This document shows, piece after piece, positions 9,248-40,039 of a stretch of DNA of 64,000 nt; positions within the stretch are counted from its first letter, which is position 1, and every line of letters begins with the position of its first letter. The stretch covers positions 27,889 through 91,888 of the IMG/VR virus record IMGVR_UViG_3300021356_000007. One strand, written 5' to 3'. The notes beneath the pieces are model-generated. The model saw only the letters and a program-made list of their open reading frames with translations. It ran no database searches and was not told the DNA's origin. Both the position numbers and the translations under genes were made by a program. This stretch comes from a virus.

Positions 9248-10501
9248 TCAGGCTGACCTATCAATTTCACCCTGAACCTTAGAACCATCTTGGCGACCCA
9301 TGTTCATTGCTGCCTGCATAAGTTGCTGTCTAGCAAATTGTTGTGCCTCCGGGCTAGATGGGTCAGCGAATGCTCTCATAGTTGGTGTATTTCTTAAGCC
9401 CGGACTTAGCATTATTTCTTTTTCTTCAGCACTCATAGGTTGCCTTTGCATGTCATCCATTGCTTGTCTCCTTGCGCCAGTCATCCTTGGCTCGAATAAT
9501 TTACGAGAAACTCTCTCAGGTTTGTCCTCTTCGACAGGTGCTTCTTGTATTTTAGAACCGCCCGGTGTCATCATACCTTCGAGCATTGCTCGGATTCTAT
9601 CTTCTTGGCTCATTTCTTGAGGTGCTTCTTCTTGTTCAGGTTGAATGAATCTAGTTGTCATACCGGATAGAGGGTCTTTTCCAAAACCTCCAGTCTTCAT
9701 ACCTTCGACATTGCTAAGTTTTGAAGCAGACCTTTGACGAGCAAATGGATTTCTTTGGACCCTGCCAGTCTTATCACTGACTACTGGCTGATTGAATTGG
9801 TCTGTTTGCATACCAAGGTTCAGTAAATTTTGACCTGACCTAGCACCACCTCTAACATCGAACCTACCGCCTCTGCTACCTGAAACCATACGGTCAGCAG
9901 CAGATGTCATACCTTCTCTACCTCTTGCTCTTTCAAGCGGAGTAGTGAAACTTTGTTCAGGGTCTACATCCATCATAGGGATAGTCTGTGTAGGGTGTCT
10001 CACTTCTAGTTGCCCTGTGTTTGGGTTCAAAGCCATACTCGTACCCATTTGGTCTACCACATCTTCTCTTAGAGGACTGATGTCTCTCTCGATAGCAGCG
10101 ACACTTTGAGGGATAGGGTCACCCCTGCCTCCTCCAAGGTTACCTAGAGGAACTGGAACGCTCGCTGTCATTTCACCGGGTCTTTCTACATCACGCTGTA
10201 CTGCGTCACCTCTACCACTAAAGGTATCAGTCATCCCCTCTAGTTCAGCCCTTTGCTCAGGAGTAAGCATCTCCAAATCTTTACCTCTTAGTCTGTTGAG
10301 CATACCGCCCCTCATTGTCGCTACTGGGTTCAAAACTCTTGTAGCGATACCTTGACGATTATCTAAAGCACTGTCGCCCATGTATTCATCAATGTATTCG
10401 TTAGACGGCATACCTGCAATAGCAGGGTGAACTGTACCGTATATACCCTGTGCGCCGGGTTGTGCTTTCAATGTAGTCCAAGCGTTTTCGAGTGCGCTCA
10501 T
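9248..10501 (-). CDS. Low-complexity Met/Gln/Arg-rich protein with AWxxLK leader; putative internal virion protein
   Basis: MSALENAWTTLKA start; T-rich TATA-like box about 25 nt upstream. Confidence 0.7.
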   Translation of the reverse strand: MSALENAWTTLKAQPGAQGIYGTVHPAIAGMPSNEYIDEYMGDSALDNRQGIATRVLNPVATMRGGMLNRLRGKDLEMLTPEQRAELEGMTDTFSGRGDAVQRDVERPGEMTASVPVPLGNLGGGRGDPIPQSVAAIERDISPLREDVVDQMGTSMALNPNTGQLEVRHPTQTIPMMDVDPEQSFTTPLERARGREGMTSAADRMVSGSRGGRFDVRGGARSGQNLLNLGMQTDQFNQPVVSDKTGRVQRNPFARQRSASKLSNVEGMKTGGFGKDPLSGMTTRFIQPEQEEAPQEMSQEDRIRAMLEGMMTPGGSKIQEAPVEEDKPERVSRKLFEPRMTGARRQAMDDMQRQPMSAEEKEIMLSPGLRNTPTMRAFADPSSPEAQQFARQQLMQAAMNMGRQDGSKVQGEIDRSA

Positions 10502-11343
10502 GAGGTGGGGATAGCGAGACCACTAAAAAAAGTGTTGATTGATTTTGCAAAGTCAGTTGCTTTCCCCAGCATCTTCTCGTCTACCCCTGTTTCAAAGCCC
10601 CAAGCGTGTAGATGGCTGACAAGAAGGGCAGTATCAAGATTAGCCCCGCTGCCCTCTGCGAAGGGACAACCACCCAATCCCCCGATGCTAGAATCAAATT
10701 GCCTGATACCGGAAAATAAGCCAGCCCTAACAAGCCTGATTGCCTGTTCTTCTGAGCCTTTATGGTGCAAATGCAGAGCCGGAGTTAGGTCTTCTTCGTA
10801 TACAATAGAAGCCCAGTCCTTTACCTCTTGCTCAGTCGCAGCACCAACCGTATCGCTGAGAACTACAGTAGAGCCTAGCATCTTCGCATCTCTGATGCAA
10901 GACTTGATTTCTGACTCAGAAAAACTACCGCTATATGGACTACCAAACGCCATGCTTATGTATACCCTAACTAAATCCTTGGGGTAAGCGTTGAGCATCG
11001 TCTTGTACATCAGAACAATTTCGCTTCGAGTCTTACCCATGTTCTTCAGGTTGAATGTCTCACAAGGGCTGAACACGATGTTGATGTAGTCCATACCTAA
11101 ATCCATAGCCCTGTCAAAGCCCCTCTGATTCATGACAAGCCCAGCACCTATGCCAGTCCAAACTTCCTCTGCATCAGCCATCTGCGGCAAGATTTTCGGG
11201 TGAGCGAAACTGACTTCCTCAATCTCAGTCAGCCCGCTGTCATACAGAAGCCCTATGAGTTTCTGTTTGTCAGAGGTAGGGACAAAGTGCTTGATGTATT
11301 GCAACCCATCTCTAGGACCAACTTCGTAGACTGTGATTTTCAT
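10498..11343 (-). CDS. hmgL: Hydroxymethylglutaryl-CoA lyase (DRE-TIM metallolyase), auxiliary metabolic gene
   Basis: EVGPRDGLQ, SFAHPK..PQMADA, LSDTVG, HLH metal motif, GLGGCPFA..GANL. Confidence 0.88.
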   Translation of the reverse strand: MKITVYEVGPRDGLQYIKHFVPTSDKQKLIGLLYDSGLTEIEEVSFAHPKILPQMADAEEVWTGIGAGLVMNQRGFDRAMDLGMDYINIVFSPCETFNLKNMGKTRSEIVLMYKTMLNAYPKDLVRVYISMAFGSPYSGSFSESEIKSCIRDAKMLGSTVVLSDTVGAATEQEVKDWASIVYEEDLTPALHLHHKGSEEQAIRLVRAGLFSGIRQFDSSIGGLGGCPFAEGSGANLDTALLVSHLHAWGFETGVDEKMLGKATDFAKSINTFFSGLAIPTS

Positions 11344-11478
11344 AAGACCGTTCATACGAGTCCGGTGTAGAAATTAAACTTGTTGGTGATTACTCAAGTA
11401 GAAAAACTAGCGGGCTCTTTGGTATACCAAATTTTCTGTAAAATTTTTTTTGTTGGAACGCCGTGTGCGGTTAAAGGA

Positions 11479-11590
11479 GGCTAAACTCCCGTCTAAACTC
11501 CATCCCTCCGTCTAAACTCAGCCGTCTAAACTGCCGTCTAAACCGCAGTCCCCCAGTCTATAGACCGTATCACAGCGAGCCCGTCTAAAC
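11479..11590 (+). repeat. Cluster of iteron-like CCGTCTAAAC repeats
   Basis: GTCTAAAC at 11491, 11510, 11524, 11536 and 11583; variants at 11479 and 11819; one more copy at 11834. Confidence 0.85.
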
Positions 11591-11888
11591 TCCAGTCGCT
11601 CGTAGGCGTACCTCTCGTATGTCATGCGTACCGTTGGTATTCGAAAGGGGCATTGGTGTCCATGTGAGCGAGCCAGCCCACACACTAATCGGGGTACTGC
11701 GAGCCAGTCGAGTACCAGTGGGCGGGCTGGTACTCGTGGGTAGGTGGTGGGGCGTGGGGAGTACCTCCCTCAACCCACGCATATGGGTGGTACATATTGC
11801 CCATTACCATACTTACACGCCTAAACCCCATGTGTCTAAACGCACGCATATGATTCCTCTGCTAACTGGAAAACGATGGACTGAGCCG

Positions 11889-11914
11889 AACTGGTTATAA
11901 AGACCCAACAAAGG
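11889..11914 (+). promoter_or_regulatory. Early promoter copy 1 (variant)
   Basis: AACTGGTTATAAAGACCCAACAAAGG; TTATAAA is an archaeal TATA box. Confidence 0.7.
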
Positions 11915-12082
11915 AGATGTTCGCCGAAAACGGCAGTCAACAACCACCTCCCCTCCCCTCCTCGACACATGGGGTGGGGCAGTACACCCTCATGGTGTAC
12001 TACGGTGGTGTACTCGAATGGTTTCGAGTGCATCAGGGTGGTTGTATATATCCTGCTAAATGATAACCGACTGACTGAACAG

Positions 12083-12108
12083 AACTGGTTATAAAAACCC
12101 AACAAAGG
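12083..12108 (+). promoter_or_regulatory. Early promoter copy 2 (variant), upstream of first early gene
   Basis: AACTGGTTATAAAAACCCAACAAAGG. Confidence 0.75.
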
Positions 12109-12159
12109 ATATGACTGCCGAAATCGGCAACCAAAACAAAACAAAAAGGAGAGATACAA

Positions 12160-12810
12160 ATGAGTAATAAACACACAATGGAACAACTGAAAGTAACAGG
12201 GGTAGCAATACCTGTGCAATTCAACGCTTGCACAGAGTTAATGAGGCAACATGTAAATGCCAAAGGTAGTGCGAAACTTGCGCTACCTATACAACCTGAC
12301 GCTTTTGAGAACGGTAGGCTTGAATGGGATGACAAGATGAACGACTTTACTAAGGCTGACATCCACAGAGGTCTTGCGGCTATCGTGAAACTGGGTCAAG
12401 AACTGAACATAACAAATGCAAACGGACTACCAACCGCAGGTAAGGCTGTCGGTTCAAAGGCTATCCTAAGCAGTTACCACACACCTACAAGAGGCAAGAA
12501 CATAGGCAAGAGATTCTTCAACATCTTGATTGTATGGCAGAAGATTAAGCAAGCAGAGAAAGCCAACGCTAACATGCAGGCTCTTGAGGTTGCTAAGAAA
12601 TTCGGTATGCAAGTCTATGTCGAAACAGTCACACTGAAAGACGGTTCGCACAGAGCATTCACTGACATCAAGAAAGCAATGGGTGCATATTGCAGACAAA
12701 ACTTTGGTAATGAATGGCACAATTCGCCTAACAAAAGATTGTATCAGGCTGAAGCAATGGGTGCTATCATGTCTGCTGATGACGAAAGAATCGTTCACCC
12801 ACAAGAGTGA
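12160..12810 (+). CDS. Hypothetical basic protein, first gene of the early block
   Basis: 216-aa ORF with AGGAG RBS downstream of promoter copy 2. Confidence 0.75.
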   Translation: MSNKHTMEQLKVTGVAIPVQFNACTELMRQHVNAKGSAKLALPIQPDAFENGRLEWDDKMNDFTKADIHRGLAAIVKLGQELNITNANGLPTAGKAVGSKAILSSYHTPTRGKNIGKRFFNILIVWQKIKQAEKANANMQALEVAKKFGMQVYVETVTLKDGSHRAFTDIKKAMGAYCRQNFGNEWHNSPNKRLYQAEAMGAIMSADDERIVHPQE

Positions 12811-12837
12811 ACCTATCAAACTCATACAGAAGTAGTA

Positions 12838-13255
12838 CGGCGTTATGCCGAGACCAACGATTCCCCAGCGGGGAGGGGTAGTAACAATATCCCCCGCATC
12901 ACATTCCACTGGAGAGAGAATGCTGACGGGCATGGTGGCGACTGAGGTGTAAGATACCTTATCTCGAAACATCTATCTGTAACACGACCAAAGAATTCGG
13001 TCAGTGTTGAAAACCGAGGACAACATACGCAAGTATCGAGTCGCCTGTTAGCAGACGGGAATGAACTAATCTCGTAGCGGTGAGAGATAATTGACCGCCG
13101 ACTGGGTGCGATGCCCAGTTATATTCGTGGTTGCTACCCTTCTTGGAAAATAAAGCCACACCCTCGGAGAGCCGTATGCAACCAGCATCCTCCACCTACC
13201 CACGGCATTTCATTATCACATTCCACCAGCCTCTTACCTGTAAGGTAATCGAGGC
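12838..13255 (+). ncRNA. Candidate large structured non-coding RNA of unknown class
   Basis: No credible ORF; many complementary segments, e.g. GGCGACT/AGTCGCC, AACAC-GACC/GGTC-A-GTGTT, ATAC-GCAA-GTAT, ACTGGG/CCCAGT, TGGTTGC/GCAACCA; strand inferred from flanking transcription. Confidence 0.5.
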
Positions 13256-13419
13256 ACTGCTAAGAAGTAGTAAGAAATAGTATAGTAATAATACAATTAA
13301 TACAATATATACAACATACTACTTTACTTTATTATAATATTAGGGGCTTACCATATTGTTGTATATTATATTCCGAACATTGAATACATTGAATTAACCA
13401 TAAAAAGGAGACTGAAAGC

Positions 13420-14157
13420 ATGACGATAGCATTTGTGAAAGGACAAAGAGCAAGAGGAAAGAGACTGATACTAACTGGCGATGCAATAGTAAGACAGTTA
13501 CATGAACTAGCCGAGGATATAATCTACCATGATGTAGATGAATACAATAACTTGGGTGACGAATGCCGTGTGCCTCCTGACTATGCCGAGGCTTGTATGC
13601 TAGTAGACAATCTCAGGATAGTCACACAGAAGTTCCAAAAGATAACAGATAAGATTAGCAGGTGGGGCTATCAAAAATACTACGCTCAATCATACAAAGA
13701 AGGGAGTACCTTGAGAGAGATAGATGGCTTCGGACTTGAAGACTGGGAGTCCGAGTATCAAGAGAAAGCACACAGGTGCATGGGCAAAATACAGGAGAAG
13801 TTCGACACACTCATGGACACAATCAAGAACCTTGAGCCCAGTGACTTGCACGATTCTATTTCCTTTTTCGACCAAAGTTATCAAGCAAGTAGCGGGAGAT
13901 GGGAATACGAATCAACGAAAGTAGTCATTGTCAAAGGGTTCGATGACTTTGGTATCGAGGACAACAGAACACGCTACAAAGATATGACACTCAAAGAAAT
14001 GCATGACGCACAAGAGCAAGCGTACTGGGATAGCCTCTCCGATGCACAGAAGCAGAAGGAAGAGGAGTACGCTAAACCTGACATCACATACATGAGAGAG
14101 AACGGCTACACTTCCTTCGCATGTAATGACAACGGTACAATATCCTACTGGAGATGA
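13420..14157 (+). CDS. Hypothetical acidic early protein
   Basis: 245-aa ORF, AGGAG RBS. Confidence 0.75.
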   Translation: MTIAFVKGQRARGKRLILTGDAIVRQLHELAEDIIYHDVDEYNNLGDECRVPPDYAEACMLVDNLRIVTQKFQKITDKISRWGYQKYYAQSYKEGSTLREIDGFGLEDWESEYQEKAHRCMGKIQEKFDTLMDTIKNLEPSDLHDSISFFDQSYQASSGRWEYESTKVVIVKGFDDFGIEDNRTRYKDMTLKEMHDAQEQAYWDSLSDAQKQKEEEYAKPDITYMRENGYTSFACNDNGTISYWR

Positions 14158-39112: not shown

Positions 39113-40039
39113 ATGAATTTTAGAGAGAAATACAGACCATCCACTTTGGATGATTTGACAGGTTGTGATGAGTTCGTAAAGTCTGCTAAGACTTGGACCA
39201 TCGACACCTGCCCTCCTAACATTCTAATTGTCGGTAAACCGGGCATCGGTAAGACCAGTGCAGCATACGCCTTAGCAAAGGATATGCTCGGTGAGTTCTT
39301 CGACCCTATGAACTTCAGAGTCACTAATGCTAGTGACGACAGAGGCATTGATTCAGTAAGAGACCTCAAGAGAGTGAGCAAGCAAAAGGGACTAGGAGTA
39401 TCGAGGAAGATTGAGTTCCTAGATGAGTTCGAGAGTTACACATCTCCAGCACAGAAAGCACTCAGACAAATCATGGAGGAGAGTCACAAGACTACTGTAT
39501 TTATCCTGACAGCCAACGACATCTCACCTATACACTCTGCTATCAGAGACAGATGTATCACATTCCACTTCAAGCCAATTGACGATGAGAACACAGGTCG
39601 ATTGGAATACATCATAGATGAAGAAGGACTTCCACAAGAATGGAAAGAACACCTACCTCACCTAATCAAATCTACAGGGGGCTCTCTGAGAAAGTCTATT
39701 GACACACTTGAGAGCCTAGTCAGAGAGCCTGACGCTTTGTCTGAGAGAATCCGCAGAGACGGTAACTACCTCAGCAAGGCTGCTCTCAATCTAATGGGTA
39801 GTGACTACCCTAAATTAACAGCCTACTTGGTTCAAGCACTTGAATCAGGTATCTCCGGCTTTGGAGTCATCAAAGGACTCCGATGGAGAGCCAAGCCCCT
39901 CATGGAGAATGAGGCAGACTGGCACAATTTCATGCTCACATACGGCGAGTTTGCCGTCTTGTCTACACAATGGCCTGACGATGACTTATCGTATGTTGAG
40001 TACTTTGTAGCAAAACTAAGAAAAAATATGGAGAGATAA
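39113..40039 (+). CDS. rfcS: Replication factor C small subunit (clamp loader)
   Basis: EKYRP, GKPGIGKT, NASDDRGID, LDE, QKALRQIME, IRDRC. Confidence 0.92.
   Translation: MNFREKYRPSTLDDLTGCDEFVKSAKTWTIDTCPPNILIVGKPGIGKTSAAYALAKDMLGEFFDPMNFRVTNASDDRGIDSVRDLKRVSKQKGLGVSRKIEFLDEFESYTSPAQKALRQIMEESHKTTVFILTANDISPIHSAIRDRCITFHFKPIDDENTGRLEYIIDEEGLPQEWKEHLPHLIKSTGGSLRKSIDTLESLVREPDALSERIRRDGNYLSKAALNLMGSDYPKLTAYLVQALESGISGFGVIKGLRWRAKPLMENEADWHNFMLTYGEFAVLSTQWPDDDLSYVEYFVAKLRKNMER

Follow-up and report, generated by a model that had tools for sequence, protein, structure and literature searches.

Genomic setting

The window analyzed in this work is a 64,000-nt stretch of DNA (bases 27889-91888) of a 91.9-kb IMG/VR virus record, and it encodes a family B DNA polymerase (polB) and a helicase. 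The closest named relatives of the polymerase are found in haloarchaeal tailed viruses, at about 25% identity, and related polymerases are present in 77 marine viral contigs with identities of 39-97%, nearly all of them at least 57%. The auxiliary genes reported for magroviruses include HMG-CoA lyase (PMC10160649), and the window carries an HMGL-like gene; hence, we infer that its source is a magrovirus-like virus of marine archaea, and it is treated as such in what follows. In species-representative genomes, the nearest cellular relatives of the HMGL-like protein belong to the Actinomycetota (35-43% identity over the best-matching segment) and not to the archaea; the matches in this search of cellular genomes were mostly to Actinomycetota, with none to Poseidoniales.

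The genes of the window point leftward as far as 11355, and from about 11860 onward they point rightward. The features that surround this strand switch, and those that enclose the element discussed in this work, are the following:

10498-11355, - strand: HMGL-like gene
11481-11600: five CCGTCTAAAC iterons at the strand switch
11735-11750, + strand: G-rich tract complementary at 15 of 16 positions to bases 13189-13204 of the C-rich tail (see below), a possible pairing partner
11859-11940 and 12053-12134: duplicated promoter-plus-hairpin cassette of 82 nt, the copies being 80% identical
12160-12810, + strand: 216-aa ORF, the first rightward gene, a homologue of which precedes the RNA in all nine known loci
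13262-13419: AT-rich boundary stretch (GC 0.26), where an inverted repeat (13307-16/13357-66) and a TATA-like box are found along with the SD of the gene that follows

The CCGTCTAAAC iterons may represent a physical genome end or an assembly break point; the contig of one relative (G009) starts inside them, and that of another (G006) stops inside them (G006:100798-100852). The first copy of the promoter cassette drives no ORF and is followed by a C-rich and then a G-rich tract (11946-11982) resembling the mRNA leader of the G009-type relatives described below. The protein encoded by the 216-aa ORF matched no Pfam family, no PHROG family and no Atlas entry, and its AlphaFold2 model, which is of low confidence (mean pLDDT 64.5), gave no fold match; three closer protein relatives (P0001-P0003) include one at 55-56% identity. 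The gene at the other side (13420-14157) shows a sub-threshold match to the metallopeptidase toxin 2 domain (PF15638; E 5e-4, 20 bits vs a cut-off of 25).

A folded, non-coding element between two genes

The first-pass annotation of this DNA had placed a candidate large structured RNA in a gap of an otherwise gene-dense genome. The gap is indeed there: ORF 12160-12810 ends, the next ORF begins at 13420, and the interval between them (12811-13419) contains short ORFs only. These short ORFs are disrupted in two close relatives (L177 and L183) by a 1-nt insertion and a 2-nt deletion, and the indels that separate the two lineages of the element described below are not multiples of three. Hence, to judge from these indels, positions 12811-13262 are non-coding. 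The element thus delimited spans about 450 nt on the + strand and has a GC content of 0.48-0.53, against 0.26 in the AT-rich stretch behind it. Long ORF-free gaps are scarce in these virus genomes, with one to four in each, and no second copy of the element was found in the genome.

The comparison of folding energy with dinucleotide shuffles, proposed as a check at the outset, singles out the + strand, which folds at -141.4 kcal/mol (z -2.51), a value equaled by one of 100 shuffles; the corresponding z for the - strand is -0.30, and the element of G009 reaches -3.8. A 10-nt direct repeat that had escaped notice, AGAAGTAGTA, bounds the whole window element (12828 and 13263) and is confined to the window lineage. 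Just after the stop codon, AAACTCATACAG (12818-12829) exactly matches the inner portion of the first hairpin module in four G009-type relatives, and it may be the leftover of a lost module.

Structure of the window copy

The structural model of the window copy comprises the following parts, in 5' to 3' order:

12838-12850, + strand: small 5' hairpin CGGC-GUUAU-GCCG, invariant in three window-type sequences
12863-12897, + strand: candidate H-type pseudoknot PK1, in which CCCC/GGGG (12863-66/12875-78) crosses GCGGGG/CCCCGC (12868-73/12892-97)
12898-12909, + strand: G-free linker AUCACAUUCCAC, copy 1; the linkers of relatives are G-free too
12921-13053, + strand: multi-branch domain 1, with two stacked closing helices (8 + 7 bp) and three hairpins, one of them with a GCAA loop
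13069-13098, + strand: candidate second H-type pseudoknot PK2, in which AUCUC/GAGAU crosses GCGGU/ACCGC
13101-13119, + strand: hairpin ACUGGG-UGCGAUG-CCCAGU
13128-13184, + strand: core hairpin P1, UGGUUGC/GCAACCA, the interior of which holds the conserved motifs GAAAAU, GCCAC and GAGCC
13185-13228, + strand: conserved C-rich tail with almost no G, containing CCUCC and linker copy 2 (13215-13226)
13229-13255, + strand: terminal hairpin GCCUC-UUACC...GGUAA-GAGGC

The helices named in the first-pass annotation were checked by script, and all of them lie where they had been placed: GGCGACU with AGUCGCC (12937-43/13039-45), AACAC/GUGUU plus GACC/GGUC (12981-13008), the AUAC-GCAA-GUAU hairpin (13025-36), ACUGGG/CCCAGU (13101-19), UGGUUGC/GCAACCA (13128-84), the crossing pairs AUCUC/GAGAU (13069-88) and GCGGU/ACCGC (13077-98), and the terminal hairpin at 13229-55. 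The first helix is one pair shorter than claimed: UGCUGACG (12921-28) pairs with UGUUAGCA (13046-53) over 8 bp, and the supposed ninth pair clashes with the next helix at C13045. CCGAGG (13014) and CCUCGG (13162) are complementary in sequence, as are the proposed end-to-end partners. All 84 pairs of the model are kept in the two near-identical relatives (L177 and L183), and a TG>CA variant at 13239-40 falls in the loop of the terminal hairpin. In single-sequence fold predictions, the tail (13185-13228) is unpaired.

PK1, which was overlooked in the first pass, has an alternative fold as two nested hairpins; its topology and position match those of a pseudoknot in G009-type relatives, and its letters differ. 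The 12-nt repeat ATCACATTCCAC does occur in exact copies at 12898 and 13215, as had been claimed. It is not a special boundary flanking the structured part, but one case of a recurring G-free linker motif internal to the element, a relationship that the annotation had missed. A third exact copy lies at 39557-39568, inside ORF 39113-40039, with a chance expectation of about 0.01 exact copies.

Homologous loci and their common layout

Through a combination of pattern scans and ORF searches, nine homologous loci forming two deep lineages were identified in viral and metagenome contigs, with some of the metagenome loci being duplicates of one another or of G002. When the genomes of polB relatives were searched with the upstream ORF, two homologues with 32-34% identity were obtained, in G009 and G002; both are followed by long ORF-free stretches, the 3' part of which is clearly homologous to 13128-13260. 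A pattern drawn from this shared 3' part was used to scan metagenome contigs and led to the nine true loci. The window lineage includes L177 and L183, 97-98% identical to the window, and the second, G009-type lineage is composed of G009, G002, L176, L181, L182 and L185. Other searches added little. The region gave no blastn match among 50,697 phage records and nothing real among 49 related viral records; each flanking protein, used as a single probe of viral contigs, returned nothing; and the pattern GAGCC..ATGCAACCAG produced about 90 chance matches in viral contigs, the true ones being only the two known relatives. A sequence-only model (R1) run on 76 polB-related records, many of them fragments, located the element in G002 and G009 only, and a protein alignment (A4) searched against viral contigs contributed one new locus, on a contig that stops 85 nt after the ORF.

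The order of the locus is constant in every case: the ORF homologue comes first, and the element, an AT-rich inverted repeat accompanied by a TATA-like box, and the next gene follow in turn. The arrangement of the AT-rich stretch is common to all relatives, and its inverted repeat follows the element in all lineages (window 13307-13366; L081 308-509; L176 2240-2441). The elements themselves range among relatives from 445 to 994 nt and share a common layout, in which an H-type pseudoknot after the stop codon is followed by hairpin or Y-shaped modules strung on G-free linkers and by a core. This core consists of P1 (GGUUGC/GCAACC), a C-rich tail of 45-50 nt almost without G and containing CCUCC, and a small hairpin. 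To the common layout, the window copy adds the multi-branch domain (12921-13053), PK2 (13069-13098) and the hairpin at 13101-13119. Only the 3' third of the element (13128-13255) is common to distant relatives, a point missed in the first pass, and the P1 core region is the sole part that can be aligned between the two lineages; even there, MAFFT misaligns the 5' strand of P1.

The modules are stable hairpins or Y-shapes with closing stems of 13-15 bp, and the linkers that join them lack G (type ..CCCACUCAC.. or ..UAUCAC..). Their number varies even among genomes that are 92-96% identical in shared blocks. Their order varies as well: the 90-nt module B precedes the core in L176 and follows it in G009, L181, L182 and L185.

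Core identity amounts to 92-99% within the G009-type lineage and to 65-70% between types. The core keeps 95-99% identity even between genomes in which the adjacent ORF shares only 55-58% in DNA and 44-48% in protein, as for example in L185 vs L181 and G009 vs G002. Such a conserved core beside a divergent ORF implies either very strong selection or recombination between backgrounds, and both point to function. The upstream ORF occurs in two forms with 44-48% protein identity (12160-12810 and the relatives L080, L081, L181 and L185) beside a core that is 95-99% identical, a pattern that suggests mosaic recombination with the RNA as anchor.

Covariation and strand-specific pairing

The first-pass annotation had proposed pseudoknots, and comparative support for their presence is provided by the 5' pseudoknot of the G009-type relatives (UACCCG-AA-CCGCAC-CGGGUA-(9 nt)-GUGCGG), with one compensatory pair in each of its crossing helices (one G-C to A-U and one C-G to U-A). 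Over six sequences and 15 pairs, 98.9% of the cells are paired, as compared with 22-39% when the partners are slid. Module B, with 35 pairs, contains 2 compensatory pairs, 6 invariant G.U pairs and 7 further pairs that vary on one side only, nearly always to or from wobble; the GGGGUGGGG hairpin contains 2 compensatory pairs, and the relatives' counterpart of the terminal hairpin retains its pairs through two one-sided (wobble) changes. Within the window trio, all six of six stem substitutions preserve pairing, and all of them do so only in + strand RNA. In domain 1, G12944.U12960 becomes A-U in L183 and G-C in L177, the A12981-U pair becomes G.U, and C13002>U, seen in public-run contigs, turns a G-C pair into G.U; in PK2, C13098>U in L183 still pairs, as G.U; and the hairpin at 13101-13119 reads GUUGGG in L177, with two wobble replacements that pair on the + strand only.

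Since changes of the G.U type are mismatches in DNA and on the opposite strand, they argue for selection on the folding of the + strand RNA. Compensatory and strand-specific wobble changes alike speak in favor of the original claim and, by the evidence of these substitutions, pairing of the + strand RNA is under selection. Because only the 3' third can be aligned between lineages, the support for domain 1 and PK2 comes from three near-identical sequences and from variants in run contigs, and the case for the window's own domains is made by the wobble pattern and by analogy. A shuffle control on the trio (318/500) is without power on three sequences, and no consistent consensus fold was found for the interior of the core hairpin.

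These observations bear directly on the notion that the element is a feature of the DNA, consisting of MITE-like palindromic insertions or of recombination or origin hairpins accumulated in a tolerant spot, with no RNA function. The gain, loss and movement of modules between close relatives would fit such an origin, as would the short direct repeats (ACCCACTCAC, ATCACATTCCAC) that flank modules, the 10-nt repeat that bounds the window element and the frequent breaking of assemblies near the region. Nonetheless, the many G.U pairs in the stems are mismatches in DNA and on the other strand, the substitution bias is wobble-compatible on the + strand only, and the crossing helices of the pseudoknot covary. 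The fold z is also strand-specific, and the best-conserved part of the element is its single-stranded tail, so that we consider a purely DNA-level explanation improbable. MITEs and similar palindromic mobile elements would show terminal inverted repeats, a target-site duplication and copies dispersed over the genome; in a direct comparison, direct repeats do flank the modules, yet the stems covary and hold strand-specific G.U pairs, and the genome has no second copy of the element.

Tests against known RNA classes

The claim that the RNA belongs to no known class was examined with Rfam 15 (4227 models, including GOLLD, ROOL, pRNA, IMES, introns, ribozymes, RNase P, SRP and tmRNA), and it held: no match was obtained anywhere in the window at gathering thresholds. 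With the limit relaxed to E<=10, only two chance matches, of 11-15 bits and on the wrong strand, appeared in the region, and the relatives produced just a spurious match of their AT-rich inverted repeat to MIR2630, a plant microRNA model, at 37-39 bits against a cut-off of 144. The observation that signatures of RNase P, SRP and tRNA are lacking is borne out by the absence of Rfam matches and of any detected tRNA.

The description of the RNA as ribozyme-like fared differently. Its large size, its pseudoknots and its GNRA loop are what one might expect from a self-cleaving or self-splicing, intron-like ribozyme or from a riboswitch; however, no ribozyme, intron or riboswitch model matches even at E<=10, the variable order of the modules is atypical of catalytic cores, there is no exon continuity, and the one suggestive motif of the core, GAGCCGUAUGC, lies within P1. 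We therefore hold catalysis or ligand sensing to be very improbable. The motif deserves a comment in its own right, since it is identical to what we take to be the 5' strand of domain V of a yeast group II intron. The hallmark of domain V is a hairpin of 34 nt that bears the AGC triad on its own 5' strand and has a 2-nt bulge; domains IV and VI, as well as exons, flank it. In the element, GAGCCGUAUGC is the 3' strand of P1 and not part of a hairpin of its own, and Intron_gpII has no match. Because the element begins after a stop codon and no conserved frame continues on its far side, an intron would lack exons to join.

Three further candidates were tried and rejected. A recoding signal (readthrough or -1 frameshift) would have its pseudoknot 5-9 nt downstream of a slippery site or stop codon, together with a conserved extended frame, and PK1 starts 52 nt after the TGA at 12808-10; the frame after the stop is shifted in relatives by a 2-nt indel in a C-run, and L185 and L081 have no slippery heptamer. 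An antitoxin RNA of a type III TA system, expected as an array of near-identical tandem repeats that the adjacent toxin processes, is rejected by the lack of a tandem repeat family in 12811-13262, where the modules differ in sequence. As for a telomerase-like templating RNA, a search of the 91.9-kb record for a reverse transcriptase (PF00078) returned no match, with positive controls. Apart from these rejected candidates, a comparison with exoribonuclease-resistant RNAs (xrRNA/sfRNA-like), in which a compact pseudoknotted fold marks the 5' edge of a stable fragment of a 3' UTR, shows a 5'-border pseudoknot in both lineages, with covariation in one and as a candidate in the window, and no ring-type junction is recognizable.

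Possible expression and candidate pairing partners of the tail

Contigs from two RNA libraries of different studies map to 12817-12968 and 12953-13265, and one of the two libraries also has contigs on 11571-11768 and 13317-13698; being assembled, of depth 2-4 and possibly affected by DNA carry-over, these contigs speak for presence in a library and not for transcription, strand or ends. No contig from the two libraries covers ORF 12160-12810, an absence that, with assembled contigs at depth 2-4, proves nothing. The position after the first early promoter cassette and these low-depth contigs would fit early expression, without proving transcription; since a homologue of the 216-aa ORF lies upstream in all nine loci, ORF and RNA probably share a transcript.

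This shared position raises the prospect that the element is a cis-acting 3' UTR, the structures and tail of which would do no more than control the first early mRNA at the level of stability, termination or translation, either through pairing of the tail with G/U-rich tracts in the leader or with the coding region, or as a barrier before the next promoter. As such a UTR would, the element invariably comes right after a member of one ORF family and is followed by an AT-rich, promoter-like stretch. In G009-type relatives, the mRNA leader has a 40-nt G/U-rich tract, the predicted duplex of which with the tail amounts to -35 to -40 kcal/mol, and in both lineages the tail is complementary to one homologous site within the ORF. 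On the other hand, the leader of window-type loci, behind the second promoter copy, has no G-rich tract. The tail pairings, be it with the G-tract, the leader or the ORF, are indistinguishable from low-complexity complementarity between G-rich and C-rich sequence, with no demonstrated covariation, and extreme conservation of the core beside a fast-evolving ORF, together with the reshuffling of modules, would be unusual for a mere UTR. We regard a role confined to cis as rather unlikely, if well worth keeping in mind.

The tail also has candidate partners near the strand switch, where, at 1.2-1.5 kb upstream of the element and on the strand that encodes it, a G-rich tract adjoins the CCGTCTAAAC iterons. 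This geography could befit a genome-end or origin RNA, in the form of a packaging RNA similar to the pRNA of phi29 or of a primer or R-loop RNA at the iteron G-tract. The iteron cluster sits at the strand switch within that distance, and it is in iterons that the G009 contig starts and the G006 contig ends. Genome-wide, the iteron-side G-tract ranks first or second among the duplex partners of the tail in the window, G009 and G002, with the 15/16 complement at 11735-11750 in the window. The margin of the G-tract over the next-best sites is nonetheless of 1-2 kcal/mol, and the 15/16 complement is found only in the window lineage; moreover, a precise, pRNA-like ring is hard to reconcile with modules that vary in number, and no pRNA model of Rfam matches. 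A function of this type seems improbable to us. A more specific proposal, and the slimmer prospect, casts the C-rich tail as a guide: it would hybridize with the G-rich, quadruplex-prone tract by the iterons, the resulting R-loop would prime or license replication or mark the genome end, and the modules would recruit host or viral proteins. If true, this would amount to an RNA-guided origin or terminus function, which to our knowledge is without precedent in archaeal viruses.

Folded gaps in other genomes

Beyond the two lineages, in a third clade, the lone long gap of the more distant magrovirus G033, whose polB is 58% identical to that of the window, extends into a 712-nt ORF-free stretch (L223 1-712, - strand; G033:60001-60712). 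This stretch follows a 195-aa ORF, in sense orientation, at about 1.5 kb from the strand switch. It folds with a z of -7.3, starts with the linker GACCCACUCAC and holds a G-poor, C-rich run; a homologue is present in G030, with one module exchanged and with 8 compensatory pairs between the two. No part of it can be aligned with the core of the window element, and the likeness between the 216-aa protein and the 195-aa ORF is faint and not significant. We call the G033/G030 element analogous, and perhaps distantly related, to the window family. The G026 contig has, close to its start, a shorter stretch without ORFs (about 230 nt; G026:1024-1250; L207), which has a z of -3.6 on the + strand vs -1.3 on the other strand and carries a UUAUCCUCAUUAUUCAC motif like that of the tail.

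Interpretation

The core of the original claim, a large structured non-coding RNA of no known class, is upheld by an element that is conserved, folded and without an Rfam match. On the comparative evidence, which concerns structure, the window RNA is a member of a real and new RNA family. With regard to its role, we tentatively favor, with a confidence that falls somewhat short of even, an undescribed family of long, modular structured viral RNAs (0.45-1.0 kb) that form the stable 3' part of the first early transcript and act in trans as scaffold or decoy. A scaffold or decoy is the most plausible function, and it agrees with the change of modules in number and order between relatives.

In such a scheme, the RNA would be transcribed together with the 216-aa ORF from the early promoter cassette, and the 5' pseudoknot and the 3' hairpin would block exonucleases, so that a stable RNA could persist. 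It would then work in trans as a flexible scaffold or decoy, with the conserved single-stranded tail serving as the site that an ssRNA-binding protein or a G-rich nucleic acid recognizes specifically, and the hairpin modules as exchangeable beads that bind proteins or confer stability.

RNA classes that are both longer than 400 nt and elaborately structured are few, and each of them has opened a line of research. We know of no long structured non-coding RNA described for archaeal viruses, and the literature examined on magroviruses and Poseidoniales viruses does not mention non-coding RNA. [quoted passage not shown] The family is, besides, a natural experiment, in which a near-invariant core is kept while modules are swapped, lost and re-ordered.

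Comparison with known systems

Among known systems, the pRNA of phi29 resembles the window RNA, itself probably early, as an early structured RNA beside a putative genome end in a tailed virus encoding polB. The pRNA is nonetheless about 120-174 nt long and of fixed, ring-forming architecture, whereas the window family spans 445-994 nt, is variable in build and has no Rfam match. Type III TA systems of the ToxI kind recall the window arrangement, in which a pseudoknotted RNA adjoins the gene of a small basic protein of unknown function; in contrast to ToxI, the modules here are not tandem direct repeats, the RNA comes after the gene and not before it, and there is no ToxN-like match. Yeast telomerase RNA is a flexible scaffold, the protein-binding arms of which can be moved without loss of function, and the window family recalls it, as an analogy of architecture only, in that modules change order and number around a conserved core with a C-rich single strand. 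Unlike the yeast system, the genome has no reverse transcriptase, and no tandem repeats complementary to the tail were found.

A closer parallel in position is offered by the sfRNAs of flaviviruses, since the window RNA also follows a stop codon and begins with a compact 5'-border pseudoknot that leads into a chain of stem-loops; position and layout thus make a stable decoy RNA derived from a 3' UTR plausible. The carrier here is an archaeal DNA virus, the pseudoknot is of the simple H-type as opposed to a ring-forming three-way junction, there is no sequence or model similarity to the window RNA, and exonuclease resistance is in the present case only proposed. Finally, GOLLD and ROOL, known from phages and prophages, are like the window RNA several hundred nucleotides long, virus-encoded and rich in helices and pseudoknots, and they too combine a conserved core with variable peripheral helices and a function that is unknown. 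The window RNA departs from them in having no Rfam match and an archaeal host; moreover, it is fixed in position after one ORF family and reorders whole modules, so that its architecture is best likened to beads on a string, as opposed to a compact fold.
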